Shown here piece after piece: positions 13,635 to 37,251 of a stretch of DNA of 64,000 bases. The DNA is from Nitrospirota bacterium (GTDB lineage Bacteria; Nitrospirota; JACRHJ01). The stretch spans positions 64,001 through 128,000 of the forward strand of contig CAWJRJ010000011.1 of the NCBI GenBank assembly GCA_963845245.1. Reading direction: 5' to 3'. The notes under the pieces were generated by a model that was not told the DNA's origin, searched no databases, and saw only the letters and a list, made by a program, of their open reading frames with translations. Each line of letters starts with the position of its first letter. Position 1 is the first letter of the stretch. Made by a program: the position numbers and the translations under genes.

Positions 13635-13754
13635 TCCATCTCCTCCAAAAACCCGTTTACATGAAATGTATCATTTTCTTTCCGATACAAAAAGTAAAAA
13701 ATGATATTATGGCATTGCATATTATCAGGAAGATACTAATGAACTCGGGATTAC

Positions 13755-13810
13755 AAAATAAAAAGGCCGCTTACGTTTCCGTAAGCGGCCTTTGGGCTTT
13801 TAGGTTCCCC
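13755..13810. repeat. Degenerate junction: type-A hairpin plus degraded tRNA 3'-end copy; also a likely terminator of the RND operon
   Basis: aaaataaaaaggccgcttacgtttccgtaagcggcctttgggcttttaggttcccc aligns with 36275-36328 (aaataaaatggccacttac...gtaagcggcctttggtcttttggctcccc). Confidence 0.75.
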
Positions 13811-15230
13811 CTCCGCCAAACACCTTGTACAGCGTCACCGAGTTGGTCATCCGGGAGAGGCGCGCGCCGATCAGGTTCTGCTGGGCGGCATAGAGTGCGC
13901 GCTGGAAGATGAGGACACTCAGGTAGCTGTCCACCCCTTTCTCATAGCGGGCCTGTGATAGGCGGTAACTCTCGGCAGTGGCGTCGGTAAGCGACTGTCG
14001 GGCTGCCACCAGGTCGTCTATCGTCCCCCTGTCGGCAAGGGCGTCAGCCACCTCCCGGAAGGCGGTCTGGATCGCCTTCTCGTAACCGGCCACTGCGATG
14101 TCCCGGTCAACCTCCGCAGCCCTCAGGTTTGCCCGGTTGCTACCGGCGTTGAATATCGGAATGGATATCTGCGGGGCAAACTTCCAGGCGAATGAGCCGG
14201 GCTTGAAGAGACCGACAAGGTCATCGCTGCCGACGCCGACGGAGGAGACTAGGGTGATCCTTGGGAAGAAAGCAGCCCTGGCCGCGCCGATGTTTGCATT
14301 GGCCCCCATGAGAAGGTCCTCGGCCTGAAGGATATCCGGGCGGTTTAGCAGCACGTCCGACGGCAGGCCGGGAGTAATATCCCTAAACGCTGCTTGCGCC
14401 TCGTTGAGACTTTGCGGGAGAAGGCCGGCAGGCACCGGAGAGCCGACAACGAGGTTCAGGGCATTCTCGTCCTGCGCCTCCACTGCCATATAACGGGCTA
14501 TATCGACACGCGCCGCATCCACGCTGATCTGGGCCTGCTGGAGGTCGAGGGCGGACGCCACCCCGGCATCGAAGCGGCTTTTGACAAGTCGGTAGTTGGC
14601 TTGCTGGTTCGTCAGGGTCTCCATGGCAAGTCTTTGCCACTCCCAGTCGGCGGCTATGTCCAGGTATGTCGATGCGACCTGGGCGACAAGGCTGATCTGG
14701 ACGGCGCGCCGGGCCTGCTCTGTGGCCAGGTACTGTTCCAATGCCTGGTCCTTGAGGCTTCTTATCCTGCCGAAAAGGTCAAGCTCATATGAGCTCAGAC
14801 CTAGACCGACGCTGTACTGCCGGACTATTTCAGCTCGTCCTATGCCGGAGAGCGTCTTGGGCAACCGTTGAACATTTTCGTCTGCCACGGCATCTATCTT
14901 GGGGAACAGGTCCGACCTCTGGATCTGGTACTGTGCCCGGGAACGCTCGATATTGAGTACGGCAACGCGCAGGTCTCGGTTGTTGTTCAGGGCCATGCCG
15001 ATCAGTTCGCGCAGGTTCGGGTCAAGAAAAAACTCCTGCCATGGGATGTCGGCCACCGCTTTTTCGGACGGCTTGCCTGATGTCTCCTTGTAGGCCGGGC
15101 CGTTTGGCCATGCGGTCGGGACTGGGGCAATAGGCCGGGTATATTTTGGGGCCATGGTGGCGCAGCCGGCCAGCCAGAGGACCGCTCCCAGGGGAAGACA
15201 CAGTGCTGTAATGCGCTTTATGTTTTTCAT
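13800..15230 (-). CDS. RND efflux outer-membrane lipoprotein (OprM/TtgC family)
   Basis: Lipobox LAGC; NNRDLRVA, ELDLFGR, LNRPDI, AFREVADAL, TLYKVFGGG. Confidence 0.95.
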   Translation of the reverse strand: MKNIKRITALCLPLGAVLWLAGCATMAPKYTRPIAPVPTAWPNGPAYKETSGKPSEKAVADIPWQEFFLDPNLRELIGMALNNNRDLRVAVLNIERSRAQYQIQRSDLFPKIDAVADENVQRLPKTLSGIGRAEIVRQYSVGLGLSSYELDLFGRIRSLKDQALEQYLATEQARRAVQISLVAQVASTYLDIAADWEWQRLAMETLTNQQANYRLVKSRFDAGVASALDLQQAQISVDAARVDIARYMAVEAQDENALNLVVGSPVPAGLLPQSLNEAQAAFRDITPGLPSDVLLNRPDILQAEDLLMGANANIGAARAAFFPRITLVSSVGVGSDDLVGLFKPGSFAWKFAPQISIPIFNAGSNRANLRAAEVDRDIAVAGYEKAIQTAFREVADALADRGTIDDLVAARQSLTDATAESYRLSQARYEKGVDSYLSVLIFQRALYAAQQNLIGARLSRMTNSVTLYKVFGGGGT

Positions 15231-15231
15231 G

Positions 15232-18200
15232 TCAGTTCACCTCCGGGGCACTTGAAGTTACGTCAGGTTGTACAGGTGGCCGCTGGCGGTGCTTCTTCAC
15301 AAACAGGCGCGAGACAAGAACAAAGAAGAACGGGATAAAGATCAGGTCGATGAATGTGGCCGAAAGCAGCCCGCCCGTGACGGCAGTCCCGATGGCGTTC
15401 TGTGCTCCGGCCCCCGCCCCGCGGGTCAGGGCAAGCGGCAAGGTGCCGAAGAAGAATGCCAGGGAGGTCATGATGACCGGGCGGAGCCTGATCTTTACTG
15501 CCGCCAGTGTGGCTTCGACCAGTTCATGGCCCTGGTGAAGCTGGTCCTTGATGAACTGGATTATCAGGATGGCGTTCTTGGTTGAAAGCCCAACGGTGGT
15601 GAGAAGGCCTATCTGGAGATAGATGTCGTTGGGGAGCACCCTTAGCGTAACTGCCGTAACCGCCCCCACCAGCCCAAGCGGCAGCATCAGCAGGTTGACG
15701 AAGGGGATGGTCCAGCTTTCATAGAGTGCCGCCACGCTAAGGAACACCACCAGCAACGAGATGGCGTAAAGGATCGGAGCCTGTTTGCCTGCGTTCTTTT
15801 CCTCGTACGAAAGGCCTGTCCACTCATAACCAGTCCCGGACGGCAGTTGGGCGGCCATCTTCTCCATCTCATCCATCGCCTCGCCGGTGCTCACGCCAGG
15901 TGCGGCCTGCCCCAGTACCTCTACGGACGGTATACCGTTGTAACGCTCCAGGCGTGGCGAGCCGAACTCCCAGCGGGCAGTGGCGAAGGCTGAAAATGGG
16001 ACCATATCTCCGGTGTTGTTGCGGACATACCAGGTGTTGATATCCTCCGGCAGCATCCGGGAATTTGGTTCCGACTGTACATAGACTTTCTTGACCCTGC
16101 CGTTCTGGATAAAGTCGTTGACGTAAGAACTTCCCCAAGCGGTGGAGAGGACTTCGTTGACCTGCTGCAGGGAGACTCCCAGGGCGCCGGCCCGCACATC
16201 GTCTATGTCGAGTTTGAACTGGGGCGAGTCGTCCTGACCGTTGGGGCGCACCGCCACCAACTTTGGATTTTTCATGGCCATCCCCAGGAGCTGGTTGCGC
16301 GCCTCCATCAGCTTATCATGCCCCAGCCCGCCCCGGTCCTGCAACTCGAAGTCGAAACCGTTTGCCACGCCCAGTTCAAGCACCGCCGGTGGCGAAAACG
16401 CGAAGGCCAGCCCGTCACGGTACTGTGAAAACGCCTTCATGGCCCGCGCGGCAATGGCTGGAGCTTTCAGGTCGGGTGACTTCCGCAGACTCCAGTCTTT
16501 GAGCTTGACAAATGCAAGCCCCATGTTCTGGCCTCGGCCGGCGAAGCTGAACCCGGCCACGGTAATAACCCCTTCCACTGTTTTTGTTTCATCCTCAAGG
16601 AAATGCCGCTCCAGCTGCCGTATGACCTTGATGGTCCTTTCCTGGGTGGCCCCGGCCGGCAACTGGACCTGGCAGATAATGAACCCCTGGTCTTCATCCG
16701 GCAGGAACGAGGTCGGGAGCCGCAGAAAGAAGAACGCCATGGCGGCAACTATGGCGACATAGACCACAAGATAGCGTACAGGCTTGCCGAATGATCGGCC
16801 GACGATCCCCTCATACTTCGACCGGCTGAATTCGAATGCGGCGTTGAACACGCGGAAGAAACCCTTGAACCAGCCGGACTCGCCCGCCTTATGTCCCTTG
16901 GGTATCGGCTTGAGGATCGTTGCGCAGAGCGCCGGGGTCAGGATCATCGCCGTCAGCACCGACAATATCATGGCGGAGATGATGGTGATGGAGAACTGGC
17001 GGTAGATAATGCCGGTGGAACCGGGAAAGAAGGCCATCGGGAGAAAGACCGCCGTCAGTACGGTGGCGATGCCCCAGAGGGCGCTGGTGATCTGCCCCAT
17101 GGATTTGACGGTGGCGTCATGGGGCGACAGCCCCTCCTCGGACATGATACGCTCCACGTTCTCGACCACGACGATGGCGTCGTCGACCAGAAGCCCGATG
17201 ACTATAACCAGGGCGAACATGGTGAGGGTGTTGATGGAAAAACCGGCGGCCGACAGTACACCCATGGTGCCCAGCAGAACCACCGGGACTGCGATAGTCG
17301 GGATAAGGGTGGCGCGGATGTTCTGCAGGAACAGGAACATTATGATGAAAACCAGGAAGACTGCGATGAGCAGTGTATGTACGACCTCTTCGATCGATAT
17401 CTTGACAAACGGGGTGGTGTCGTAGGGATAGACCACCTTCATGCCATGTGGGAAGTATTTCGACAGCTCATCCATCTTGGCCTTGACCCGGTTGCCGGTA
17501 TCCAGCGCGTTGGCCCCGGCCGCCAGGCGGATTGCCATGCCGCCCAGGGGTTTCCCATTGTAATACGACTGTACCTCGTAGTTCTCCGTACCGATTTTGA
17601 CATCGGCCACATCCTTCAACTTGACCGTGGAGCCGTCCGGGTTGGTGCGGAGCACTATGGCGCCGAACTGCTCCGGGGTCTGGAGCAGGGTCCTGGCATT
17701 GATGGTAGCATTGAGCTGCTGACCCTTTACGGCAGGGACGGCTCCGAACTGGCCGGCCGACACCTGGACATTCTGGGACAGCAGCGACGCGACAACGTCA
17801 TCGGTGGTCATCTGATAGTTATCCAGTTTGGCGGGGTTCAACCAGATGCGCATGGCGTTCTGTGTGCCAAACAACAGCAGTTCCCCAACCCCATCCACCC
17901 GGCTTATGATGTCCTGGACGTTGGAGACCATGTAGTCGGTCAGGGCGTTTCTATCCATCGACCCGTCTTCCGACACGAGCCCGATGATCATCAGGAAATT
18001 TCTGGTGGATTTGACTACCTGTATTCCCGAGCGCTGTACGATCTGGGGGAGGAGGGGTATGGCCAGTTGCAGTTTGTTCTGTACCTGCACCTGGGCGATA
18101 TTGGGGTCTGTGCCGGCCTTGAAGGTCAGCGTGATGCTCACCGCCCCGGCCGAGTCGCTGGTGGAGGCCATGTATATCAGGTTGTCGATCCCGTTCAGCT

Positions 18201-18402
18201 TCTGTTCGATGACCTGGGTGACCGTATCCTGTACCGTCTGTGCCGAGGCGCCCGGGTAGACGGCGTTGATGGCGATCTGTGGCGGCGCAATAGGCGGATA
18301 CTGGGAGATCGGTAAAGTCTTTATTGCCAGGAGGCCCGCCAGCATGACCATGATGGCAATCACCCAGGCGAATATGGGTCTGTTAATGAAAAACCGGGGC
18401 AT
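15232..18402 (-). CDS. acrB: HAE1-family RND efflux permease (AcrB/MexB-like)
   Basis: 1056 aa; [39 protein letters not shown]. Confidence 0.96.
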
Positions 18403-18412
18403 GGGGTCTCCT

Positions 18413-19609
18413 TTACTTCTTTACTTTGGTGGTCTGCGTAGCAGCGCCGGTGTTTGTGTCTGATTTTCCGCCGAACGGCACCGCCTTGACCGGTGTTCCC
18501 GGCCGGGCCCTCTGTATCCCTTCGAGGATGACACGGTCGCCGGTATTGAGACCTTCGCTGACCAGCCAGCTGTCTCCAACGGTCCGGGCGACCTTTATGG
18601 TACGAGGCTCCACTTTCTCTTCGGCCCCCACCACCATTACCATTGCGTCTCCCTGAGGGGTACGGGTAACCCCCTGCTGAGGAACTAGTATCGCCCGGTC
18701 GTTGACCCCTTCCTCAATAACGGCCCGCACGAACATGCCCGGGAGCAGGGTCTGTTTCGGGTTCGGAAATATCGCCCGCAGGATTATGGAACCGGTGCTC
18801 TGGTCCACGGTCACTTCCGAAAATTTCAGAGTACCCTCCAACGGATAGGCATTGCCGTCCTCCAGTACCAGCTTGACCCTTGCCTGGTCGGCCCCGCCCT
18901 TTTTCATCAGACCGCTTGCAAGGTTCTGCTTCAGCTTCAGAAGCTCGGCGCTGGACTGGGTGACATCCACATACACCGTGCTAAGCTGCTGGATTGTGGC
19001 GAGCGCCACGGGCTGGTTGGCGGTAACAAGTGCACCGTCGGTCACGCTTGAGCGGCCGATACGTCCGGATATCGGCGCAGTTATCTTTGTATAGGCCAGG
19101 TTGATCCGCGCCGTTTCAAGCGCGGCTTTTGCTGCCTCGATGTCCGCCTCCGCCTGCTTGAGCTGGGCCGAGGTATCGTCTGAGTCCTGCTTGCTTACCG
19201 CGTTGATTTCAACCAATTGGCCGTAACGCTCGGCCTTTAGCCGGAGCGGGACGGCGTTTGCCTCAGCCCTGCTGAGTGCGGCCTTAGTGCTGGCATAGGC
19301 TGCCTGGTATATGGCTGGGTCGATCTGGTATAGGACCGCCCCCGCCTTGACATCCGAGCCCTCTGTGAAGAGGCGCTTCAGGATGATACCCCCGACCTGC
19401 GGCCTAACCTCGGCGACATAATACGCGGAGGTGCGCCCCGGAAGCTCGGTCGTCAGCGCCACATGCTGCGGCTTTACTGTAATCACCCCGACCTCGGGAG
19501 GCGGCATCTGCTGGGGGGCGGTGGCTTTTTTCCCGCAACCGCCGGTTATAAACACGCCCGCCATGACGACGATGGCGGCTGCATACCTAATACTGTTATG
19601 GACTTGCAT
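18413..19609 (-). CDS. acrA: RND periplasmic adaptor (AcrA/MexA-like)
   Basis: Lipoprotein [41 protein letters not shown] before ATG 19609. Confidence 0.95.
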
Positions 19610-19652
19610 ATATACCTCCATGGATTAAACAGTGTTTTTATATTATAGCGGT

Positions 19653-20227
19653 TTACAATTTCATTGCGTCCCAGCAGGCTGAGACCGTCAGTTCGATAAG
19701 GTTGTCGTCCAGGTTTATAAACCCGAGGATATGGTCGCGGGCCAAAGTAAGAAGCGGGCCAAAGGCGAGTCCGAAGAGGACCGGGAGAGGAAGGTCCTTC
19801 ACTATCCCTCTTAACGAGTGCTTCGTTGAAAAGTTCCTTGATTATATCCTTGTTGTTTTTGCCGAAAAGTTTCTCCCGGCGGTGGGCCACCCCGTATGGG
19901 GAGTTGTGGAACTGTTCCATAAACCTGAAACTCCAGCGGCGCTTCTATACAGTAGCGGACAAGCACTTTTCCTATGTGGAGGAAGCGGTCGCGTACCTCG
20001 CCGTCCTCAGGGTAGCCCTCCATCACCGCCGCGAAGAAACGTTCCTCCAGGTAGTGGTGCACCTCGTTTATGAGGACGTCCTTGCTCTCGAAGTAGCGGT
20101 ATATAGTCCCCGCAGCGACCCCTGCACGCTATGCTACAAGGGCCATGGGCGCACCGTGGAAACCCTGCTCCGCTACCAGGTCGAGCGTCGCACGGACGAT
20201 GGCGCATCGTTTGTCAGTTTTCTCCAT
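19653..20227 (-). pseudogene. TetR/AcrR-family regulator with an in-frame TAG and two frameshifts
   Basis: MEKTDKRCAIVRATLDLVAEQGFHGAPMALVA*RAGVAAGTIYRYFESKD...; TAG at 20129-20131; frameshifts near 19930 and 19810; C-terminus ...ACWDAMKL*. Confidence 0.85.
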
Positions 20228-20241
20228 CAGAAACCTCAGTG

Positions 20242-20255
20242 AATGAACGTTCATT
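20242..20255. promoter_or_regulatory. Perfect 14-bp palindrome, putative TetR operator
   Basis: AATGAACGTTCATT lies between the promoter-like elements (TTGACA at 20285-20280, minus strand) and the RBS of tetR. Confidence 0.75.
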
Positions 20256-20314
20256 TTTATATCATACTCGTCCACTATTTGTCAAGACCTTAGGATGTTC
20301 TTACTGATATCAAC

Positions 20315-20404
20315 AAATAAAATGGCCGTTTACATTGCTGTAAGCGGCCATTGCTTGGATGGCTCCCGGCGCGGGGTTATTAGAACCCTATTACGTGAAC
20401 CGCA
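20315..20404. repeat. Junction: type-A hairpin, tRNA 3'-end copy and degenerate, truncated tail
   Basis: aaataaaatggccgtttacattgctgtaagcggcc...tggctcccggcgcggggttattagaaccctatta aligns with 36275-36360, with 2 small deletions. Confidence 0.85.
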
Positions 20405-20407
20405 CTC

Positions 20408-20974
20408 TTACCTGACCAGGTTCAGTTTCGCTTTGGGTTGCTTTCGGGTGACCGTCATCTCCATTTCTTTCTCTTCCTTGCCCCCCTTTGGGGTAATGTA
20501 CATTTCATATTCCAAGGTATTGTCATCCACGATCCTGGTCACGCTACGCCAGTCAACCGGCCCCCTTACCGGGTCGTCATAGTTGCATTCCTGCGTGATG
20601 GTCTTGCCATCAGCGCTGGCGGTACCCTCGAAATAATAGATGGCGGTACTCATCGAGTCGACCCAGGTGGACACATACTTCCTGCTATGGTTGTCATACC
20701 CTATGAGGTTGATACCGGTGAACGGATTCCCCATCATGTCGCCGGTATACTTCTGCTGGAGATAACGTCCGTCGAGGATCATCTCCTGTTCACAGGTACC
20801 TGTGCTCTCCACCTGAGGCTTGCCGGGTTCCGTCCTTGCCCTGGTTATGGTAACCCAGCTTCCGGCCAGGCTAGCCAGCAGCTTGTGGGGTGCGCCTGGA
20901 ACCCCCAGCTTCCTGTATACCTCCATCATCGAATCCATGTCCATCTTCACCGCTTGATTTGTTCCTTTTTTCAT
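20408..20974 (-). CDS. DUF1579-family protein
   Basis: PGAPHKLLASLAGSW, MILDGRYLQQ, GYDNHSRKYVSTWVDSMST. Confidence 0.8.
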   Translation of the reverse strand: MKKGTNQAVKMDMDSMMEVYRKLGVPGAPHKLLASLAGSWVTITRARTEPGKPQVESTGTCEQEMILDGRYLQQKYTGDMMGNPFTGINLIGYDNHSRKYVSTWVDSMSTAIYYFEGTASADGKTITQECNYDDPVRGPVDWRSVTRIVDDNTLEYEMYITPKGGKEEKEMEMTVTRKQPKAKLNLVR

Positions 20975-21203
20975 CAGGGACCTCCTTCAGATGTCGATTA
21001 GAAACCCGCAAAAGTAGAGGTTACGGGTTTGCCGTCTGGCACCTTTTAATTATTGTTCCTATCTAGATATATAACAGATATGGCGCCCTGCGTCAAACTG
21101 CAGGGAAGCCGCAATGGAGGCTGCCAAAGTCAGGAAGACATGCTGATTTTTGGTGAGATATTGACTACTTTGGCCATGGCAATAGAGCTTTTATCATTAT
21201 AAA

Positions 21204-23051
21204 TCAGTCTAACGGCAGTATCAGTTTGAAGGTGCTCCCTTTCCCGGCTTCGCTTTCCAGTTCGACCCTACCGCCATGCGCCTCGGCTACGGCCTTCACG
21301 ATGGAGAGTCCAAGACCTGTCCCTTTGACACCTGAAGTCTTCGGGGAGCGGTAGTATTTCTCGAAAACCTTATCCTGTTCTTCGGCATGTATGCCTTCTC
21401 CGGTATCCGCTACCGATATCAATATAAAATCGCCCCCCTTTTCACGGATTGGCTCTGCTTTCAGTGTAATCCTGCCTTCGGATTGGGTATAATTTACCGC
21501 ATTCTGGAGTAGGTTGAACACCGCCCTTTGTACCAGTTTCTGGTCGATTTTGACTTTCGGCAGGACATCCGCGATTTCCGTGTTAAAAACAAGGCCCTTT
21601 TCCTGAAAGACCTTTTCAAAACCTGCATACGTTTCTTTAAGAGTCTGGCCAATATCGTATGAAGCGACGTTTAGTGCAAACGCTCCAGCATCCATTTTTG
21701 AAACGGATAAAAAGTCCTCAACCAGGCGAGTCAGCCTCTCTCCACTAGAACGTATTGATTTTATCATGTCCATCGTATCCGCACTAAAAGTGTCAGCCAT
21801 GCCTTCAAGCAAATCCGCATATCCCATTATAGAGATGAGAGGGGACTTCAGGTCATGTGTGAGCATGGCATAAAAATCAGCTTTCTGCTGTTCAAGTTCC
21901 TTTATCTCCGTTATATCTCTTGCCGTTGATAATGACCCGGCAAAGTTGCCCTGCCCATCTTTAAGCACACGGCACCACCATGCGAGAAGGCATTTTTTGC
22001 CGTCACGACGACGCTGCCAGTTTTCAAAATAGACAATATCCTCCAAACCTTTGAAAAGAGGGATCGCTGCCCTTGTTTCCTGTTCACCCTCAAAATAGAA
22101 TGCCGCCTCTTTGCCTAAAACATCATAGCCAAAAAAGTCAAAACCTGCCTGGTTTGTCCAGGTATAGACATCATTTGTATCCACTTCCATGATAATGTCT
22201 GGAACTGCAGCCAGGATTGCCTGCTGGCGTGAAGACATTTTCGTCAACTCCTTTTCCACCTGCTTCTGCTTGTCAAGTGCAGACCTGAGCCTGTCAACCC
22301 CGCTTTTATGCTTTGACGCAAGCCAGCCTAGCAATACGATGGATGCTGTCATACGCAAGATGTGCCAGAACCACCATAGGGCGTCCCAAGGCCTTGAGTA
22401 ATCGAATGTCAGAGATGAGATGCCGAAGAGAAGCGCCAGGCAAGAAAATGTGCAATATTCTGTTTTACCGGAATTGTGAAAATCTATCATAAGGCGGACA
22501 GCGGCTGCGACGAACAACACCCCGGCTATAAAGTTAATCGCTTTTGCCGCTATGGTGAACTCTCCCTGATATAACATTGCAGGGAGTGTTTCTTTGAATG
22601 CGAGTATCCAAGATCCAAGGATTACGGATGCGGACATGACAACCCAGGGTAGCCATTTGGGATGCGGCTCCAGCCTTTTGACTACCGGGAACCAGACAAG
22701 CGCAAAAAAGAATCCGCCCATAAGGCTTGCCAAACTTCGGAGAAGGACAAAGCCGCTGCCTGTCGGGGAGACAGCATGGAAGACGTCAAGCATTCCCATG
22801 CTGAGAAAACCCATAGCAATCATCAGTGTTTTTCCGTCAGCCTCTTCCCATTCTCTAATTAGCAGAAAAAATGACATGATAATTGCTGCAAGCGCGCCGA
22901 AAGCCTCCATTGAGGAATGCACCGGCTCATTGACAAATTGCCAGCCGGGAAAAAGGTTCTGCATTGCCAGCCCCAAAATAAGCGATAACGCGCCAATTAT
23001 TGCCAGCCCGAGGTACTGCGGATTGCGCCAAATTAACAGTCTTGTCTTCAT
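21204..23051 (-). CDS. Membrane sensor histidine kinase (MASE3-like TM domain, PAS, HisKA, HATPase)
   Basis: About 8 TM segments with HSSME and MLDVFH motifs; THDLKSPL; GTGLGL. Confidence 0.88.
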   Translation of the reverse strand: MKTRLLIWRNPQYLGLAIIGALSLILGLAMQNLFPGWQFVNEPVHSSMEAFGALAAIIMSFFLLIREWEEADGKTLMIAMGFLSMGMLDVFHAVSPTGSGFVLLRSLASLMGGFFFALVWFPVVKRLEPHPKWLPWVVMSASVILGSWILAFKETLPAMLYQGEFTIAAKAINFIAGVLFVAAAVRLMIDFHNSGKTEYCTFSCLALLFGISSLTFDYSRPWDALWWFWHILRMTASIVLLGWLASKHKSGVDRLRSALDKQKQVEKELTKMSSRQQAILAAVPDIIMEVDTNDVYTWTNQAGFDFFGYDVLGKEAAFYFEGEQETRAAIPLFKGLEDIVYFENWQRRRDGKKCLLAWWCRVLKDGQGNFAGSLSTARDITEIKELEQQKADFYAMLTHDLKSPLISIMGYADLLEGMADTFSADTMDMIKSIRSSGERLTRLVEDFLSVSKMDAGAFALNVASYDIGQTLKETYAGFEKVFQEKGLVFNTEIADVLPKVKIDQKLVQRAVFNLLQNAVNYTQSEGRITLKAEPIREKGGDFILISVADTGEGIHAEEQDKVFEKYYRSPKTSGVKGTGLGLSIVKAVAEAHGGRVELESEAGKGSTFKLILPLD

Positions 23052-23200
23052 GACTTCTCCGAGTGCCGGGCGGTTATTGCTTTAAGAGTTCATTTATTCT
23101 ATTGCAATAAAATCACGTCTCTCGTAAATAACGCATTCAAATATATCATATCTAATAGCAATATTCCATATTTACCAACCTGCCAATCCAGCAATATGGA

Positions 23201-23365: not shown

Positions 23366-23369
23366 ACCC

Positions 23370-23516: not shown

Positions 23517-23538
23517 TTCCCCTCCGATTAAACTTAAT

Positions 23539-26500: not shown

Positions 26501-29500
26501 AGAGTTGCGCGTCGGTCTCTGTGGCATTGATCTGTCGCAAGAGCACCTGGCTATGCGTCCATGCCAGGTCGAAGACACGGTCCGCGAGAAGCCGGTCCTG
26601 ATATTTCTCGATGAACCCCATACAGGCCTCTCGATTTTCTCCGACGCCGGTGACAATATTTATTGTGGCCGGCTTTTCCGGCTCCAGGGTTATCCTGTAG
26701 CGTACTGCGACAATGGGGTCCAGCACCGAGCCCTGGCTGCCTGAGAGCGCCCCAGAGGGGTTTGCGGTATAGTGCATAGCCTGCGGGTCAGCGACAGTGT
26801 TGCCTCGGCCTATGAACTGCATACGGTCGGTCTCATAGGAAGCCTCCCCGGCATCTGCACCGTGTACTGCCACCAGATGAAACATCCACGGCGCCTGCTC
26901 GTCTGAGGAACGGGGCCTGCGCGTGCAGAGTATGGCTCCCTGCTGGTGAATGATTTCGGTCTGGACAAACAGGTTGCTGAACGCCGGATGCAGTGCGTCC
27001 GATGCCGGAGATGCAAGGACCACTTCCGCGTAACTCGTTATATCTATCTCCCTGCGCGTCTGTGAGCGGTTCGTGATCGTTATCCGGCGCAGTTCGATGT
27101 CATCCTCGGGCGAAACTGTGATCTCCGTATGCATCTCAATATTGTTGTCCGTCCGGCGGAACTCCACTCTTGCTTCAGAAAAAATCGCTTCGTACTTCTT
27201 TTGCCGTTTGAGAGTCGGCTGATATGCGGTTGACCAGAACTCTCCGCTCGCCACGTCGCTGATGTAACAGAACGTGCCCCAATTATCGCAGGTACTGTCT
27301 TCGCGCCAGCGTGTAACCGCTATGTCTTTCCATCTGCTGTAGCCGCCCCCGGCGTTCGTGACCATCACGTGGTACCTGCCGTTAGACAATAGCTGTACCT
27401 CCGGGACCGGCGTGTCGGGACTGCCCAGTACGCGCACCGGCATCTCCTGGCCACCTGATGCAGAACGTATCTCTGACGTTTCGGCGGTGTGCGAATAAAA
27501 CGCCGTGGCCTTTGGCACACGCTCCTGTAGCAGTAGCATGGTTGCCTGGAACTCCGGGTCGGACTCGAACCGCTTCTGCATCTGACCGTCCAGGAGCAGA
27601 CAGGCCAACGAGAGAAGGCTCATTCCCTGGTGATGTGCCATGAAGGACCGGACTACTGCGCTCGACTGTCCGCGCGGCAGGCGGGAAGGAGTGTAGTCTA
27701 TCGCCTCATAGAAGCCATACCGGGTTTCAAGACCTTCTGCCGAGAGCCGTTGCAGGTTCGCGCAGGCCTCCTCGGGCGCCACCATCAGTGCAAGCGCCGA
27801 TGCATAGGGCGCAATGACCAGGTCCCCGGCGAGCCCGCGTTTAAGCCCCAGGTCAGGCACGCCAAACGCGCGGTACTGGTAGCTTAAATGAACATCAATC
27901 GTGTTGTAGCCGGATTCCGAAATACCCCAAGGCACCTTGTGCTTCTTTCCGTATTGAATCTGGCCGGCGACAGCCGCCTTGCAGGTCTGGTCCAGCAGCG
28001 TGTTTTTATACGTCGGCATCACCAAAAGCGGCATCAGATACTCAAACATCGATCCGCTCCATGAAAGCAGGACAGGGTCTCCACCGGTGGTGGTGAGCAG
28101 GCGTCCCAGAGCGAACCAGCTCTCCTGTGGCAGTTGTCCCTGAGCAATCCCTACGAAACAGCACAGCCTGGCTTCAGAGGCCAACAGGTCATAAAAACTC
28201 TCATCCAGCCGCCGCTCCCTGACGTTATACCCGATGGATAATAAATGACGTGCCTTGTCGAACAGAAAGTCATATTCCATGCGGGCGAACTCGCCGGACT
28301 GCAGTGCAAGCCTTTCAATTTCCGCAATCCTCAACTTGGCACGCTGGCCTGCCTCTGCAACAAGCTTTTTAAGCTCATCTGTCGGCAGCAACTCCGCCTC
28401 GATGTTGGACAGTTGGCGCAGAGTCTGGATTTCATGAAGGGCCGGGAACTCCCGGAAGCTATCAGGAGGATCCGGAAGCCTTGTCCATGGAGCGAGAATC
28501 ATCAGTTCATCTAGGGCTGTCTGGCACTGACCGGCGAAGGCACGTGCCCACCACAGGGCTTTGTTATCTATTACGTTACCGGCAGAATCGAGGGCAGCGA
28601 TTATGGCGACCAGTTCCGCAGCGGACGTTGCCAGGTGTTCAAGGCACTGCCGTGCTGCCATAAGAGTATCGGGTGGGTGATTATACGCTGACTCCGTATC
28701 CCTCTGAAGGCGGGCGAGCTGAGTGCCGGAGCGGTTCCTTCCGTGGCGTCCACGAGAATCCGCATGGTATCGCTGAGGCCGTCAAACAGACTCGCTCCCA
28801 GTATCTTCTGGTCGGGAAGCGCCAAAAGACCGGGCCGCAGAGTAAGCAGGCTGCCCGCAAGGTTACCACTGTCCACCGATGAAATGTAGGTGGGCAACAG
28901 CGGCTTTAAAGTTTGCGTATCGTACCAGTTATAAAAGTGGCCCCGGTGTTTTTCCAGGGCTTCCATTGTTTTAAATGCATTTTCGGTGCGTTCGATGAGT
29001 TGTCCGGCTACGATATAGCCAAAATCGTACGCGGATAAATTCGATAACAGCGCAAGCCCCATGTTGGTCGGCGACGTGCGATGGGCAACTACGGGAACGA
29101 GGATGCTCCTGATAGTTATCAGGCGGAAGCCAGTTATCTTCCGGGCCGACGAACGTCTCAAAAAATGCCCATGTCTTTCTGGAAAGCTTCCGGAGAAAAA
29201 TGGTCTGGTCAGCAGTCAGCCTTGCTTCGCGGCGGGCGATCGGCCGGCTGAGCCACCACGCGATAACAGGGGACGAAAACCAGAGACCCAATAGTGGACC
29301 AGCAACTCCAATAGTGGCTGGCCTCGAAAGGGCCAGTTGGACCGCTGCCGCAGTGGCAATTACTGGGGCGATCCACATTGACCGGCAGAAGCCTGCAAGG
29401 CTGGCCTTGCTGGCGCCACCGGTTTCGCTCGATGTACTCCATTCGAGAAGCCGTTTATGCGTGAATAGCATCCGCCACGCGGTGCGCACGATTGCGTCCA

Positions 29501-32279
29501 GACTGTAAAACGCCTCATAAGGCAGGCAGGCGAGCATAAATACAGCCTGGGCAGCGCTTACGCCGGTGGAACGGCCTACGGCAGCAAGATGCTGTCCAAG
29601 GAGCACATCCTTTGGCTTCTGAAGCAGATGCAAATATCGAGGTAATCAAAGAAGGTATCAGGATAATCCCGAACACTGACAAGGTCCAGAACAATGGCGC
29701 CGCCAAGACCGTCCAGCCGAGCAGCAGCAGGATTGTCAGCCCGGCAGGCACGAGACTGCGCCGAAGGTTGTCGAGGAGCTTCCATCGGGACAGCAACGAG
29801 AGCGGGTTCTTTTGAAAGCGGGCAAGGGTGCCCGGAACACCCGGCAGCAGCCATCGTACAAGCTGCCAGTCCCCGCGGATCCAACGATGCCGGCGGCTCA
29901 CATCCGCGCTGTAGCGGGACGGATATTCCTCGTACACCATTACATCGCTCAGAAGCCCCGCCCGCGCGTAACATCCTTCCAGCAGATCGTGGCTAAGGAT
30001 CCGGTTCTCAGGGAAACGCCCACCCAGCGCCATCTCGAATGCGTCAACATCATAGATGCCCTTGCCTATGAACGACCCTTCCTGGAACAGGTCCTGGTAG
30101 ACATCCGATACAACACGCGTATAAGGATCTATCCCCGGTTCACTGCCGAACATGCGCGCATACCGCGACCGGTTCGCACCGGGCAGGCTGACGGCCACAC
30201 GCGGCTGAAGTATGCCATATCCCTCACAGACGCGCTGTTTGTCTTTGTCGTAACGCGCACGGTTCAGAGGGTGCGCCATTGCACCCACAAGCTGCCAGGC
30301 ACTGTCGCGCGGCAGTTGAGTGTCAGTGTCAAGCGTGATCACGTACTTCACACTTGATAATACCGCAGTATCACCGACTATGAGCGAAAAGTGCTCTTTT
30401 GTGGCACCATCTGCTCCGGCGCGCAGTAAAGAGTTTAAGTTCCGAAAGCTTGCCACGCTTGCGCTCGTATCCCATCCAGATACGGTCCTGGGGATTCCAT
30501 AGGCGCGGGCGATGGAAAAGGAAGAACGTATCGCCTTTTGAACTCCCGTACTTTTCATTCAGTTCCTCGATTCTCTGCCGTGGCCAGCAGCAGAAGCGGT
30601 TCGTCCTCGGGCAGCGTTTCGCTGTCCGCGTCCCGAAAATCAGTCAGCAGGCCGAAGTGCAGGTTGTCGTCACGGTTTGCCAGGAACCTGACTTCCAGCG
30701 CCTCGACCAGGTCCTCGATGTTTTGAGCGCTTATGAGCATGGTCGGGACAACTGTCAGAGTCCGCGATTCAGGCGGTATACCTTTGGAGAAATCCATCCG
30801 CGGCAGCGGGTGCGGTGTCGCGAGCAATGTGACCAGCCAGTTCACCAGGGCCACGGACAGGTGACTTGCGCACAGAAGCGAGAGGACACCTGTCAACACG
30901 AGTACCCAGCCATACAGCCCGGCAGCATGTGCCTTAAATAATACGCTCCCCGTGAAGGCCGCTGTAATCAACATAATACTGCCGATATACATCAGCAAAG
31001 GAAACCGTGCGGCCCATTTCCGAAGGGCCTCAAAGACGGATAAGCGTCACTTCTGCCAGTCGCTCAAGCTGCGCCAGTCCATTGCCTATCAAGGTAATAG
31101 CCCACATGTGCCGAGCGGCTGTCGAGGCCTTGTTTGTCGTCTTTGCTGGCCGCGCTTTCATGCGCAAGCCTGATTGCTTCGGCCGCAACCTCGCTCTCCG
31201 ATAACGGGCTTTTCTTTGCTATCTTCTCTACAGCGTGGCGGTAACGGTCACGCGTGGAAAAATCCATCTTGCCGTAGACACCATCGGTGTCCTCACGCAG
31301 GGTCTGTTCGACAATGCTCATCGTCTCGACGAATTCGCGCCAATCCATTGCGCCAAGGAAACGGAGGCTGCCGATACTGTTGCTCATCGAGACTTGATCA
31401 GCGGCCTGTTGTTGGTTCTGCGACTGCACCAGTTGCTTGATTGTCAGGCCGGACTCGGACAGCCGCTGCTCGATCCAGGTAAGAGGCAATGCAAGGGCAG
31501 GGCCCTTGTCCCTGGAGCCGGCGCGTGAGTTCCGCAACAAACGAACTAACCATCGGCGGTTCCGACCGCGCCATGTCGGCAATCACAAGAATCAGGCTCT
31601 TCGGGTCCTTTTCCGCGGTTTCCGTCATCAGGTCAGCCCAGTAATCGGCACTGTTTCGGTCGAGCCTGTCAGTGGCGATCCGGGCCGCAACCCGCCGGAG
31701 GTTCTCGATCAGTGCCAGGCGCAGCATGATGGGGATTGCCCACAACTCGCCTAATTTCAGGCTGGTGACTGTCTGGTAGGCCGTTACAAAACCGCTGAGG
31801 TTCTCCGGGTCTACCCGCCCATCGCCATGTGAAATCGTTTCCAACGCAATGTCGTATACGCGCGGAAGACCGGCCGAAGGACCATTTTGCAGGCGAGGCA
31901 GTTCCCGGCTGTAACCTTTTGGCAAATGCCTTCTCGCCGTGCGAATCTGCTCTTCAATCAGATAGAAGTTGTCGAGCAGCCATTCCCCGGCCGGTGTAAT
32001 GCTGCGGTTTGTCTTGACCGCCTCTGCCAGGAGGTTGCGGGCTTTAAACAGTACGCCTTCGTTCTCGGCCAGCCGGGCCAGCAGCTGTTCCGAAGCATGA
32101 CCCGGGCTCAATTTGTGCGAACCGGCCAATTCCTTGCCATGCTGCTCCATCTGATAGGCGCTGAGCAACTCCGACCGAAGCGGCGGCTCGTCGCCGATGC
32201 ACTTTTGCGCTACGTCGTAACCGCTGAAGCTCGCCCTTAAATTGAGCAGGTACTTGAGAATAGTACTATTCTCCTTCAC
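23539..32279 (-). CDS. ndvB: Cyclic beta-1,2-glucan synthase/phosphorylase (Cgs/NdvB/ChvB; GT84 plus GH94), about 2900 aa, split by about 8 frameshifts
   Basis: EWLLDNFYLIEEQI, LGELWAIPIMLRL, VITLDTDTQL, LSHDLLEG, SWSGSMFEYLMP, YYQSGGAYGFRDQLQD, GSGDWNDGMN, GWTWYTGSAGW. Confidence 0.92.
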
Positions 32280-32450
32280 GATTCATTCCGATCTTTTGTA
32301 ATAGGAGCCTCGCCCTGAAATGTATTTGCGTTTACAACCGGTCTTGGGTAGCTATATCTCCGGCGTGGAGAACAATAAGAAGTATATCAGATGTACTTCG
32401 GTGAGGCCTTGCGCAGGGGAGGAGCTCGGTAGGTATCTCTTGTATGAGAC

Positions 32451-32479
32451 ACTATAGCCTCTTATTCATAGTAAGTCAA
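32451..32479 (-). promoter_or_regulatory. Putative sigma70 promoter for the glucan synthase, implying a leader of about 165 nt
   Basis: Minus strand TTGACT-17 nt-TATAGT. Confidence 0.55.
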
Positions 32480-32686
32480 TGTAAAACGGCTTTAACTATT
32501 TGAAATAACGGGATTTTGAATGTCGTGTGTTCTTTGTGAATTCTCTACCTGCACCTGTACTGTCGGGTTCGGTCATGTTTTACATGCTTTATGGGTGAGT
32601 TTATTTCGCTATGAATTAATGGTATGAACCGCAAGCCCTTGAGTCATTTGATGTGCTGAGGGGTAGGTTTAGGGAAGGTCCGGGAG

Positions 32687-33322
32687 TTATTTAAGAGCGG
32701 GAAACAGATGGACCAGCCCTCCGGCAATGAACTCTACGGAGATGGCCGCCAGCAGCAGTCCCATAAGTCGCGTTGCGATATTGATTGCGGTTTTGCTCAT
32801 TATTTTGCTGAGAGGGTCGGCGACAAGCAGCGCAACCCACGTCAATAATGCTACCAATAAGGTGATAAAAATAATCAAGCCGATATGCAGCGGCTGAAAC
32901 GATGCATGCGAATAGATTATCACCGTTGATATTGCACCCGGCCCGGCCAGAAGCGGCATGGCAATCGGTACAACGGCGATACTCTTCTTATCTTCGGCTT
33001 CCGTGGCCTCTTCTGGCGTCTGCCTGCCCTGAGTATTTTTGGCCTGCATCATGGAGATTGCCATCAGCATTAATAGGATACCGCCACCAACCTTGAACGA
33101 ATCGATGCTGATACCAAAAAAACTCAGTAGTATCGTACCCATAAGGGTAGCTGCAATTAAAATCAGGGCGACTGCTACGCTTGTTGTCTTCGCTATATTA
33201 CTGCGTTCCTGTGCTGACATATTATTGGTAAGGCTGACAAAGACAGGAATCACTCCGATAGGGTTTACTATCGACAGGAGTGCTGTAAATATTTTTATAT
33301 ACACTGTCCAATCGAGCATCAC
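32687..33322 (-). CDS. marC: MarC-family membrane protein
   Basis: IVNPIGVIPVF, FKVGGGILL, VPIAMPLLAGPGAISTVI, RLMGLLLAA. Confidence 0.92.
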   Translation of the reverse strand: MMLDWTVYIKIFTALLSIVNPIGVIPVFVSLTNNMSAQERSNIAKTTSVAVALILIAATLMGTILLSFFGISIDSFKVGGGILLMLMAISMMQAKNTQGRQTPEEATEAEDKKSIAVVPIAMPLLAGPGAISTVIIYSHASFQPLHIGLIIFITLLVALLTWVALLVADPLSKIMSKTAINIATRLMGLLLAAISVEFIAGGLVHLFPALK

Positions 33323-33442
33323 TTGTATCGTCCTTCAGCCCTCACCGTCCGACCAGATTGCAACCGTTGTACTAGTTCCAATTGTATCACACCTTATTAT
33401 TTTATTGCCCCGGCAACTTGACATGCGAATACCCTTGACAAG

Positions 33443-33591
33443 AAAAGGGGTTACGCTGTAAAGCGCAACCCCTTGATTTTTTTTGGCTCCTCCGCGTGGA
33501 CGATATTAGAACTTTATTGCTTGACCCGACAGGGGAGATATTGAGTACGTTTGCAGCCGCAAAAGGCTTTGAGGACGCCGGATTAACTTAA
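33443..33591 (+). repeat. Junction: type-B hairpin (near-copy of the hairpin beside the tRNA), tRNA 3'-end copy and intact tail
   Basis: 33443-33490 nearly equals 37137-37182; 33484-33591 reads WLLRVDDIRTLLLDPTGEILSTFAAAKGFEDAGLT*. Confidence 0.92.
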
Positions 33592-33760
33592 GCGGCTACT
33601 CCAGAACACGTATTTTAACTCCCGCAAAGAGATAAGAAGGCAGGAGTAAAAGCAGGGCCGATACAGGAGGACAGAACTACACTTCTGTGATAATATAAAT
33701 AAATAATCCCCATTACTCTCAAACAATTTAAATAACTTTTATCGCGGCGGCTATTCTTGA

Positions 33761-35986
<2,226 letters not shown>

Positions 35987-36062
35987 TCTTGTGAGTTGGC
36001 AATTAAAGTTGACCCGCGATTGGAGCCCAAACTGCATCACTTTCTGGCGTGCTATTAAAGAC

Positions 36063-36104
36063 AAAGACTTACGGTAACACCCGTAAGCCCTTGATTTTTG
36101 GTAG
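36063..36104. repeat. Variant junction-like hairpin followed by cttgatttttggtag
   Basis: cttacgg-taacac-ccgtaag then cccttgatttttgg, resembling the type-B junction but with a different base run after tgg. Confidence 0.45.
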
Positions 36105-36274
36105 AAGGTGAGCCATTTTGGGCACCGACTCACACTATTGGCTATACAATGCCCGCCTAAAAAGTCAAGGGCAGAGCGGACTCGAACAATGTAACATGCT
36201 GTAATTATTAGACAAAATGTGTTTTGTTGGTATAGGGATGGTATCGGGCAGTTATTATCTAACTCAGAATTACC

Positions 36275-36436
36275 AAATAAAATGGCCACTTACATCGCTG
36301 TAAGCGGCCTTTGGTCTTTTGGCTCCCCAGCGCGGACGTTATTAGAACTTTATTGCTTGACCCAACCGGGGAGATATTGAGTACGTTTGCAGCCGCGAGA
36401 GACTTTCAGGCCAACAGGCTTACCCGCAAAACATAA
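36275..36436 (+). repeat. Junction: type-A hairpin, exact 9-nt tRNA 3'-end copy and intact tail
   Basis: tggctcccc at 36320; 36320-36436 reads WLPSADVIRTLLLDPTGEILSTFAAARDFQANRLTRKT*. Confidence 0.92.
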
Positions 36437-36588
36437 CTCGTCTGAAAAACATGCGGCTGAAGCGCTTCCCCTGCTTTTTTCTTGACTTGAAGTTCTGCGT
36501 ATGAGAAAAGTACGGTCGACGAAGTTGTTGCTCTTTTAATGGGGCTGTTTGTCTCTGATAATACTCTCTCACGCTGAGGGAAAGTTTT

Positions 36589-37095
36589 GTGAAAAAAGCG
36601 GTTATCATGATCATGACGCTGGCGCTGGCCTTCGGGCTAGTGGCTACAGGCTGCAAGGACAAATTCAAGAAAGACTTCAAGACGCTCCTTGAGGAGGGCC
36701 GTATCGCGTACAAGGCTGGAAACTATCCGAAGGCCCTTGATGCATACGTTACCGCGGCAGAGATCAGCCCGATGGACCCCAGACCACAGTTTTACCAGGG
36801 CAATGTGCTGTACACCATGGGTGAGGTCAACGAGTCTGTACAGGCATTTGACAAGGCCATCGCCTTGGCCCCGACAATCGCCCAACCATACTTTAACAGG
36901 GGCATAGCGCTCGCCCGCCTGAAACGCTACGACGAATCGGTAGAGTCGTTCAACAAGGCGATCGAGCTCAGCCCCAACCAAGTCAAGGCTATATATAACA
37001 AGGCGCTAAGACTGGACAAGAAGGGCAAGAAGGACGAGGCGCGGGCCGCGTTCGACGAGGCGGCAAACCTTGACCCCCAGTACAAGAATAAGTAG
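36589..37095 (+). CDS. TPR-repeat lipoprotein
   Basis: Signal peptide ending ATGC; 3-4 TPR motifs (FDKAIALAP, FNKAIELSP). Confidence 0.88.
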   Translation: MKKAVIMIMTLALAFGLVATGCKDKFKKDFKTLLEEGRIAYKAGNYPKALDAYVTAAEISPMDPRPQFYQGNVLYTMGEVNESVQAFDKAIALAPTIAQPYFNRGIALARLKRYDESVESFNKAIELSPNQVKAIYNKALRLDKKGKKDEARAAFDEAANLDPQYKNK

Positions 37096-37138
37096 TTAAG
37101 CGCACAAGATAGGTTAGCCGAGGGATTATTTAAAACAA

Positions 37139-37168
37139 AAGGGGTTACGCTGAAAAGCGAAACCCCTT
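37139..37168 (-). terminator. Type-B hairpin/terminator downstream of tRNA-Asn
   Basis: Minus strand aaggggtttcgcttttcagcgtaacccctt followed by T-rich sequence. Confidence 0.75.
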
Positions 37169-37175
37169 GATTTTT

Positions 37176-37251
37176 TGGCTCCCCGGGCCGGACTCGAACC
37201 AGCGACAAGGTGGTTAACAGCCACCTGCTCTACCAACTGAGCTACCGGGGA
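37176..37251 (-). tRNA. tRNA-Asn (GTT)
   Basis: TCCCCGGTAGCTCAGTTGGTAGAGCAGGTGGCTGTTAACCACCTTGTCGCTGGTTCGAGTCCGGCCCGGGGAGCCA; 76 nt cloverleaf with encoded CCA. Confidence 0.97.

Follow-up and report, generated by a model that had tools for sequence, protein, structure and literature searches.

Behind the tRNA-Asn(GTT) gene in a 64-kb stretch of DNA from a Nitrospirota bacterium (JACRHJ01; GCA_963845245.1, contig CAWJRJ010000011.1, here C11), we found an array of four gene blocks, 20360-37175 (16.8 kb), each bounded by repeats derived from the 3' end of that tRNA gene and each free of any recombinase gene. The whole stretch is called the window throughout, and this tRNA gene is the only one that ARAGORN and Rfam detected in it. 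We give a probability of about 0.7 to the reading that the island extending from 20360 to tRNA-Asn arose by tandem site-specific accretion of blocks that resemble cis-mobilizable elements (CIMEs). Such a scenario is the published model of tandem accretion and CIMEs and is not new. On this reading, the array is a clear new example, at a Nitrospirota tRNA-Asn, of a known route of island building. An earlier note on the same DNA had described five blocks in an integron-like array at this position, and its claims are considered below where the evidence bears on them.

The window belongs to an assembly (G000) of 2.88 Mb in 37 contigs, with a completeness of 90% and a contamination of 5.2%. It was compared with genomes of relatives (among them G001, G002, G006, G007 and G008), with metagenome contigs (L007, L008 and L009) and with sequencing runs (X4-X6). 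The run data were assembled contigs of related populations, in every run the share of words sampled from 33300-37400 that was present was 17% or less, and stretches without cover in the run contigs carry no evidential weight.

The earlier note had located the last nine bases of the tRNA gene (TGGCTCCCC) at 36320 (9/9) and at 33484, 23246 and 20360 (8/9 each). A motif scan returned these same positions, with exact copies at 36320 and at 37176, in the tRNA itself, and one mismatch at the other three. With up to one mismatch allowed, the 9-mer occurred 18 times in the window versus 21.3 +/- 4.4 expected, and at least 18 matches were obtained in 84 of 100 shuffles. Since this is the frequency expected by chance, the 9-mer by itself proves nothing and was dropped as evidence. 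Four of the five sites that had been proposed (36320, 33484, 23246 and 20360) are embedded in a repeat of up to 99 nt, which was absent from the earlier note. The 99-nt copies at 23244, 33482 and 36318 were 83-86% identical to the reference copy, and 80-84 of the 99 positions were equal when they were compared pairwise; the fourth copy is shortened. These junctions are designated J1 to J4, starting from the tRNA (Table 1). All four lie on the same strand, in the orientation of tRNA-Asn, and in each repeat a terminator hairpin is joined to the final bases of tRNA-Asn and to an arm that resembles a collapsed tRNA-Asn. This anatomy and the uniform orientation support the proposal that the repeats are junctions of the attachment-site (att) type, anchored on the 3' end of tRNA-Asn.

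On the tRNA (minus) strand, the module reads ...TCCCCGGT-(about 30 nt)-GTCCGCGCTGGGGAGCCA and is followed by the terminator. It retains both halves of the acceptor stem of tRNA-Asn, the 3' half of the T-stem and the CCA end, while the middle of the tRNA is swapped for a conserved stretch that is not tRNA. In all seven aligned copies the minus strand keeps TCCCC.GT (5' acceptor half) and GTCC.C.C.GGGGAGCCA (3' T-stem plus acceptor), and the arm follows the pattern AGAACTTTATTG...GGGGAG.TA.TGAGTAC. No family match was obtained for the modules with Rfam or ARAGORN, which called only the true tRNA-Asn. In the consensus fold the only conserved pairing is an acceptor-like stem of 6 bp (CUCCCC/GGGGAG), and none of the 16 predicted pairs showed a compensatory change. 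Because the acceptor halves are kept while tRNA calls and covariation are missing, the module reads as a collapsed pseudo-tRNA; an element whose att site is directed at a tRNA 3' end would be expected to bring such a sequence as its half of that site.

An identity block of 12 nt, TTTTGGCTCCCC, occurs at 36317-36328 and at 37173-37184 and nowhere else in the window. It is composed of the T-run of the terminator, CCA, the discriminator base and five acceptor-stem bases, and outside it the tRNA side and the J1 side diverge (AGCGCGGAC vs GGGCCGGAC). Since the identity is confined to TTTTGGCTCCCC and divergence begins beyond it, the presumed crossover is placed at the very end of the tRNA gene. Within tRNA genes, integrase subfamilies differ in their preferred site, which is the anticodon loop, the T loop or the extreme 3' end; the Asn module would fall in the last of these classes and the repeats at tRNA-Lys, tRNA-Val and tRNA-Gln described below in classes with longer identity.

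A strong hairpin stands ahead of each junction copy, as had been claimed, and the stem search bore this out for all four junctions, where these hairpins are the top terminator-like stems of the region (11-13 bp). They are of two types, A (GGCCGCTTAC...GTAAGCGGCC) at 20312, 23199 and 36272 and B (GGGGTTACGC...) at 33435 and 37129. Within the assembly, type A was found only on C11 left of tRNA-Asn and on the co-binned contig C35, plus one looser match on C18, and the hairpin search for type B returned only 33447 and 37141. Hairpins of type B were also seen 3' of tRNA-Arg (C17), of tRNA-Ala in G008 and of tRNA-Asn in G007. At the tRNA-Ala(GGC) locus (L026, G008:C25, 8008-8331) the type B hairpin stands with an integrase C-terminal remnant in a decayed island, the remnant belonging to tRNA-Ala, and from this arrangement B-type hairpins appear to be the usual tRNA terminators in the family.

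Table 1. Features of the tRNA-Asn array and its left flank. Positions are those of the window; block 1 is innermost (next to the tRNA) and block 4 outermost.
Feature	Position	Strand	Basis or remark
tRNA-Asn(GTT), intact, anchor of the array (attB side)	37176..37251	-	ARAGORN; Rfam tRNA 66.5 bits
TTTTGGCTCCCC, tRNA-side copy of the 12-nt identity block flanking block 1	37173..37184	-	Likely crossover region
Type B hairpin and T-run beside the tRNA, tRNA-proximal (right) end of block 1	37129..37175		90% identity to the 33435 hairpin
Block 1, 847 bp: arm, TPR lipoprotein gene (36589-37095, +; 168 aa), type B hairpin	36329..37175		Pfam TPR
J1: core and ~90-nt arm (putative collapsed pseudo-tRNA-Asn)	36317..36416	-	Repeat alignment
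Type A hairpin ahead of J1, right end of block 2	36272..36312		Repeat and stem search
Block 2, 2827 bp: arm, katG (33794-35986, +), own terminator, ~170 nt, type A hairpin	33493..36319		Pfam peroxidase
J2: core (8/9) and arm	33484..33580	-	Repeat alignment
Type B hairpin ahead of J2, right end of block 3	33435..33482		Repeat and stem search
Block 3, 10229 bp: arm, small open reading frame (23370-23609, -), GH94 cyclic-glucan-synthase-like gene, marC (32687-33322, -), type B hairpin	23255..33483		Pfam
J3: core (8/9) and arm	23246..23342	-	Repeat alignment; L009 homologue after a different left flank
Type A hairpin ahead of J3, right end of block 4	23199..23239		Repeat and stem search
Block 4, 2877 bp: shortened arm, DUF1579 (20408-20974, -), MASE3/PAS histidine kinase (21204-23051, -), type A hairpin	20369..23245		Pfam
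J4: core (8/9) and only the first ~33 nt of the arm, most decayed	20360..20401	-	BLAST E 1e-14
Type A hairpin ahead of J4, probably the original chromosomal flank of tRNA-Asn	20312..20352		Repeat search
OEP-AcrB-MFP efflux operon (Pfam OEP/AcrB/HlyD) and broken TetR	13800..20242	-	Pfam
"J5" of the earlier note: type A hairpin as terminator of the efflux operon, core-like bases being OEP coding sequence	13753..13809		Comparison with G007 orthologue

Evidence for insertion at the core comes from a second tRNA-Asn locus. Synteny between contig C35 (23 kb) and the window extends from 36025 to past the window end, at 82-93% identity, and C35 carries a tRNA-Asn gene identical to that of the window. 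On C35 hairpin A abuts tRNA-Asn, and exactly 36329-37184 is missing. The corresponding insert in the window consists of the arm, the TPR lipoprotein gene, the type B hairpin and the second core copy, and it is flanked by the identical 12-mers TTTTGGCTCCCC. Since C35 duplicates housekeeping genes of C11, as inferred from synteny and from the Pfam matches of the corresponding C11 genes, it most likely represents a second, related population that was binned with the first. Among the run contigs, one from X5 (depth 5, likeness 85% or more) joins 36311 to 37171 and lacks block 1, and contigs from X6 hold this block, one of them beginning exactly at 36318. The gain or loss of a block exactly at the core, which had been anticipated from the sequence of the window, is therefore seen between tRNA-Asn loci for block 1, which is absent from both C35 and the X5 contig.

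The repeat was not scattered away from this tRNA. When a 161-nt J1 query was searched against the assembly, six matches below E 1e-10 were obtained, namely J1-J4, the hairpin at 13742-13810 and C35 336-412. In relatives, real matches to the module were found in 2 of 41 genomes searched and then in 2 of 401 Nitrospirota genomes (the present one and G008); the remaining four matches of the 401-genome search were of 19-35 nt, with E values of 0.005-0.008. An exact-pattern scan returned one locus in species-representative genomes (the G008 record) and three metagenome contigs, and no match to the module pattern was found in viral contigs, on which ground a viral origin was rejected. With copies restricted to this array, C35, G008 and the three metagenome contigs, the junction searches of the assembly and of relatives upheld the link between repeat and tRNA. 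A dispersed repeat of the miniature inverted-repeat transposable element (MITE) or repetitive extragenic palindrome (REP) type was ruled out, because significant copies in this genome stand only in the array and at the tRNA-Asn of C35, and real matches occurred in just 2 of 401 genomes of the phylum.

Different cargo beside the same module, in line with the reading of the earlier note, was seen in G008, L007, L008 and L009. The G008 locus consists of a third type of hairpin, core plus arm, a Fic gene and the end of the contig, and in G006, which belongs to the genus of G008, the ~85-nt hairpin module of G008 abuts an intact tRNA-Asn. L007 has block 3 (window 29588-32601) on the left of the module and, on the right, two Usp genes together with a sigma-54 response regulator and its cognate kinase, and L008 has an OprB porin on the right. 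In L009 the right side is J3 with the start of block 3, and the gene on the left has its homologue in our genome in an islet behind tRNA-Arg(CCT) on C17.

The contents given for the blocks (TPR, KatG, glucan synthase, MarC, DUF1579 and histidine kinase), and also those of the region further left (RND efflux and TetR), were confirmed by Pfam. The G+C content is 48.1% in block 4 and ranges from 48 to 56% in the blocks overall, versus 52% in the flanks. Among the 11 family relatives, katG was found in one (92% amino acid identity) and the glucan-synthase gene in three (86-89%); for comparison, a flanking phosphonate-binding gene has 65% identity to its orthologue in G002. On these sequence comparisons, the cargo appears patchy and unusually similar across genera. 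Synteny in G002 was uninformative, tRNA-Asn and the orthologue of the flanking gene being 48 kb apart on one contig.

The 64 open reading frames (ORFs; 19 + 39 + 6) scanned in the window gave no Pfam match to an integrase, a transposase, an excisionase or a transfer protein, which agrees with what had been claimed for the blocks. The small ORF beside J3 (23370-23609) was considered as an excisionase or regulator and rejected, as it had no Pfam or PHROGs match. Since att sites are kept and recombination genes are absent, the blocks meet the definition of CIMEs at the level of sequence, and they appear CIME-like, that is, bounded by att sites and either dependent on an integrase encoded elsewhere or now immobile.

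According to the accretion reading, the extreme 3' end of tRNA-Asn would have received a succession of related integrative elements, each by site-specific recombination with the crossover within TTTTGGCTCCCC. Each element would bring its ~90-nt arm, a collapsed copy of tRNA-Asn, to the junction distal to the tRNA, and with its other end a terminator hairpin that comes to lie beside the tRNA and restores its termination. Each newcomer would push the older blocks outward. We infer that a tyrosine-type integrase made the junctions, and the order of arrival would be that of the blocks from the outside inward. The earlier note had stated that junction integrity falls with distance from the tRNA. 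This stands insofar as the outermost junction, J4, keeps only ~33 nt of arm, which fits the expectation that the oldest is the most decayed and hints that J4 is the oldest; the trend is weak with four junctions, and the site at 13801, which had been counted in it, is no junction. A related contig of run X4 carries a canonical core at the J4 joint.

At 13801, where a degraded fifth junction had been proposed, no arm was found, and the bases that resemble the core are the final codons of the gene for the outer-membrane efflux protein (VFGGGGT*). The orthologue in G007 ends with VLGGGSI*, homologous to the end in the window, and has no hairpin there; this junction is therefore withdrawn. In G007 the OEP-AcrB-MFP-TetR operon (69-76% nucleotide identity) lies less than 2 kb from tRNA-Asn, separated from it by one ORF, epimerase-like as judged from its translation, and a type B hairpin, and no partial tRNA copies were found in 20 kb of this region. 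Since the operon lies near tRNA-Asn in G007 without tRNA-end repeats, the RND-TetR "block 5" is probably conserved chromosomal flank and not a cassette. The array thus comprises four blocks; of the five described earlier, the four bounded by junctions remain. The TetR_N domain (20060-20200, -) of the regulator, upstream of the RND operon, is broken by one TAG, with its ORF in pieces, due either to an assembly error or to a pseudogene.

Several results weigh against the accretion reading. The first concerns the recombinase. The earlier note had expected its gene elsewhere in the genome, at a matching att site, and none was found: the genome has five PF00589 matches, all off C11 and none adjoining the module, and no PF00239 match. 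The five are two proteins of 309 and 322 aa, taken from size and context to be of the Xer type, an intact 388-aa integrase 34 nt from tRNA-Leu(CAA) on C17, a partial match on C13 and a fragment on C19. A recombinase tied to the att module was found nowhere in our genome, the 11 family relatives or the three metagenome contigs, and none was seen on L007-L009 or in the 16.9 kb seen of G008. Full-length tRNA-Asn was found at seven loci in 6 of the 11 family relatives, and none of these had a PF00589 match, among those listed, on the same contig. Comparison of the Asn arm with the junctions of tRNA-Leu, where the islet of the intact integrase lies, and of tRNA-Gln and tRNA-Lys gave only chance 7-8-mers.

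Other difficulties concern the breakpoints. C11 and C35 differ by several other indels as well. G006 and G008 share only the ~85-nt hairpin module, and since their upstream genes differ, this pair is supportive and not clean. In L007 and L008, marC and the type B hairpin are swapped, from ~32601, a point without a core, for ~190 nt and a type A hairpin. Homology with G001 is limited to the genes (katG, 33750-35989; glucan synthase, 23546-32305). The earlier proposal that cargo boundaries coincide with junctions thus holds for block 1, exactly at the core, and fails for the marC change at ~32601 and for G001, where homology ends at the gene ends. Block 3 is common to relatives while its neighbours on both sides differ, and for this reason strict stacking with the newest block next to the tRNA is insufficient on its own. 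No unambiguous excised or circular form was seen among the run contigs: the sole back-joint, 23236 to 20382 in run X4 (depth 2.8), may equally be a homologue of J4.

Some of these observations would suit a different origin, the one favoured in the earlier note, in which the blocks are cargo-only cassettes that never travelled with an integrase, carry a complete attP (terminator, core and pseudo-tRNA arm) and are inserted and excised singly by a dedicated integrase whose gene lies elsewhere in the genome or in the community. With its tRNA anchor, such an array would work in a manner analogous to an integron. Block 1, of just 847 bp, has one gene, both conserved ends and a precise presence or absence. 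The recombinase is missing in all contexts seen (four junctions here and four in relatives), no integrase fragment lies in the array, block 3 is shared between loci in which both neighbours differ, as would be expected if blocks move singly, and the picture is likewise at tRNA-Gln in this genome and at tRNA-Val in G001. However, the module has no linked candidate integrase, circular forms were not seen, blocks hold from 1 to about 4 genes on either strand, and the right ends, two of type A and two of type B, do not form a single uniform attP. In addition, integrase decay beside tRNAs occurs in the family (tRNA-Val on C19; tRNA-Ala in G008), and the arrays of relatives contain what look, from the sequence, like deletion scars: the ~190 nt left of hairpin A (L007:3010-3190, L008:70-250) reads as a MacB/FtsX-type C-terminal remnant, similar to C14:80816-80914. 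Integrase remnants, deletion scars, the shortened arm of J4 and the two types of right-end hairpin would suit the decay of islands that formerly bore an integrase, and we regard the cargo-only origin as a tentative alternative.

Homologous exchange is a less likely explanation. Modules and hairpins would then act as "portable homology" for RecA-dependent double crossovers after DNA uptake, with no site-specific recombinase active today. Modules are 80-90% identical over 100-180 nt between strains, enough for occasional exchange, some breakpoints are off the core, and no recombinase was found. Such exchange would leave unexplained why every joint has a collapsed tRNA copy and a duplicated 12-nt core and why all copies share the orientation of the tRNA, and the ends of block 1 have only 12 nt in common.

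We consider it very unlikely that the repeats arose by local duplication of the tRNA 3' end and its trailer through unequal crossing-over, a process known for the repeats distal to E. coli tyrT, with the blocks as ordinary chromosomal genes. The repeats are direct and confined to the downstream side of the tRNA, and the outermost "block" is probably chromosomal; against this, the indel of C35 comprises a gene plus module and not the module alone, unrelated genes stand beside the module in relatives, and the cargo is patchy and very similar across genera. Finally, we find it hardly credible that the module is a MITE/REP-type repeat or that it encodes, on the minus strand and with its own terminator, a small RNA or a tRNA-like element, as the acceptor-like stem and CCA end followed by a terminator in 7/7 copies come with no Rfam or ARAGORN match at any module and no compensatory change, and the module is not dispersed.

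As a control, the 3'-terminal 18 nt of all 46 tRNA genes were searched against the genome itself, and the pattern of tRNA-Asn was found at other tRNA genes. For tRNA-Gln(CTG), two exact direct copies lie downstream, 13 and 23 kb off (C14:71054-94072), with identical arms of at least 85 nt at the junctions, and they bound blocks of 10 and 13 kb without recombinase. One of these blocks holds a two-component system, an ECF sigma factor and a MacAB-OEP pump, and the other an acyl-CoA ligase, a 2-oxoacid dehydrogenase and an alternative ATP synthase operon. Single exact downstream copies were found for tRNA-Lys(TTT), at 2.7 kb (C2:59683-62463), and for tRNA-Val(TAC), at 2 kb (C19:27944-30018), the latter enclosing the integrase fragment of C19. 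A downstream copy with one mismatch was found for tRNA-Lys(CTT), at 0.6 kb (C17:113305-114015), and one with two mismatches for tRNA-Arg(CCT), at 2.8 kb (C17:195338-198198), whose islet holds the left-flank gene of L009.

In G001 (L036, G001:C27) the intact glucan-synthase gene forms a single-gene block between repeats at 8852-8996 and 17964-18109. These repeats, 9.1 kb apart, consist of a hairpin, a partial tRNA-Val(CAC)-like sequence and an arm (38 + 95 nt, 88-89% identity), and no PF00589 match was found on this contig or on the contig with a third copy of the repeat. Since the glucan synthase is bracketed by tRNA-Val repeats in G001, the same cargo occurs in arrays on different tRNAs in two genera. 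It is doubtful, though conceivable, that the family runs a tRNA-anchored cassette system, with recombinase-free cargo units, from single genes to operons, that each have a complete attP (a terminator and a collapsed copy of the target tRNA), with one or a few integrases located elsewhere that insert, excise and reshuffle them, and with several tRNAs (Asn, Gln, Val, Lys) as anchors. An array on one tRNA could in this way pass cargo, the glucan synthase being an example, to an array on another, and the whole would be a functional equivalent of integrons with tRNA genes as its basis. That the pattern recurs at several tRNAs, and that one cargo gene has different anchors, seems noteworthy.

The closest published analogue is the ssrA islands of Dehalococcoides (PMC3146451), which are marked by a 20-bp repeat with an adjacent conserved motif and of which 15 out of 31 lack an integration module, the authors suggesting possible CIMEs. 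They share with the tRNA-Asn array several tandem islands downstream of one small-RNA gene, direct repeats of its 3' end with extra conserved bases, and niche-adaptive cargo. About half of them have a serine-recombinase module next to attL, so that the enzyme is known, whereas the array described here has none, its target is tRNA-Asn and its conserved arm, of ~90 nt, is derived from a tRNA.

CIMEs and tandem accretion at att sites have been described for ICESt1-type elements of streptococci (PMC5704250). As in those CIMEs, the blocks are bounded by attL/attR-type repeats of the target 3' end, contain no genes for integration or transfer and form a tandem stack at a single attB that is intact at the proximal end. 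In contrast to the published elements, no integrative and conjugative element (ICE) or integrative and mobilizable element (IME) partner and no integrase was seen here, all four blocks are recombinase-less, the smallest is a single gene on 847 bp, and the host is an uncultured Nitrospirota. Tycheposon islands of Prochlorococcus (bioRxiv 10.1101/2020.12.28.424599) have partial tRNAs between elements, and newcomers push older ones inward. They too are adjacent to tRNAs, with remnants that persist and with several tRNAs targeted (here Asn, Gln, Lys, Val and Arg); tycheposons, by definition, carry their own tyrosine recombinase and often replication genes, whereas the Asn and Gln arrays have neither, nor fragments of them. 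The likeness to integrons, which the earlier note had put forward, is reduced to a functional analogy: a polar row of gene units at one site, with a recombination-site repeat bounding each. No intI, attI or Pc is present, the repeat is a copy of a tRNA end and not an attC hairpin, nor does it have an attC-like fold, and each unit has its own signals and holds from one to several genes, on either strand.

No Nitrospirota example was found in the full-text literature on CIMEs, accretion and tandem islands, in a search that was not aimed at Nitrospirota. The array offers a nucleotide-level view of how an uncultured Nitrospirota of sediment or soil type may assemble accessory functions (peroxide defence, envelope glucan synthesis, efflux and signalling) behind tRNA genes. 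Nearly all such blocks in the lineage are without recombinase: tRNA-Asn has four of them, tRNA-Gln two and, in a sister genus, tRNA-Val one. If the blocks are mobilised in trans, a large part of the mobile gene pool of such organisms would systematically escape island finders that depend on the presence of an integrase. If they are merely decayed islands, they would still offer, together with a natural empty site, a well-delimited case of accretion of the CIME type beyond Firmicutes and Dehalococcoides.

Several minor observations were made on the genes and repeats of the region. The GH94 cyclic-glucan-synthase-like gene of block 3 (23539-32279, -) is split into about 8 ORF pieces in the window, whereas its N-terminal part is one ORF of 896 aa in L007 and the whole gene an intact ORF of 2897 aa in G001. 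Related contigs differ from it by single-base indels, e.g. at 29100, and the breaks are due either to assembly indel errors or to a recent pseudogene. In run X6, one contig of low depth (2.3) connects 23605 directly with 32362 and would be a variant without the entire glucan-synthase gene. An 18-nt tRNA-like match inside the coding sequence of this gene (E 0.013) was taken as chance; no other significant tRNA fragments were found within the window. Elsewhere in the genome, a partial tRNA-Leu at C17:15459 lies within coding sequence and is no junction.

Between the katG terminator and hairpin A, 36053-36260 (C35:130-335) holds a second "hairpin-TTGATTTTT-TGG..." signature, with TGGTAGAAGGTGAGCC at 36099 and a T-loop-like GGACTCGAAC at 36178. 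The TGGTAGAAGGTGAGCC signature and the T-loop-like sequence are both conserved in C35, and they may be the scar of another junction of tRNA type or a small RNA, although no significant match was obtained against the 46 tRNAs of the genome. The first 100 nt of C35 are unlike katG and resemble a repeat-rich stretch (CTGGGTCAAACGGGATGCCGAT...) situated ~400 nt downstream of katG in G001 (L035, G001:C85, about 10900-10950); they may be the end of an insertion sequence or MITE that broke the assembly. In G008, an inverted tRNA-Asn-like end, CCCGGGGGAGCCA, lies at L005 (G008:C3) 16673-16685, 1.4 kb right of the junction, past Fic and near the contig end.

Left of the array, type A hairpins at 4065-4105 and 13753-13793 are the terminators of a histidine-kinase gene and of the RND operon, respectively, and within the genome the type A family is almost confined to the ~45 kb left of tRNA-Asn. 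Two A-like sites, C11:56261 and C18:67908, were rejected as ordinary terminators, the former lying between convergent genes and the latter 3' of a recombinase-led operon, putatively xerC-hslVU. The region is also unusually rich in PAS/GAF sensor kinases, and the 3' ends (HATPase) of four paralogous histidine kinases, at 4155-4362, 9413-9620, 11434-11641 and 21214-21421, are 67-77% identical over 208 nt.

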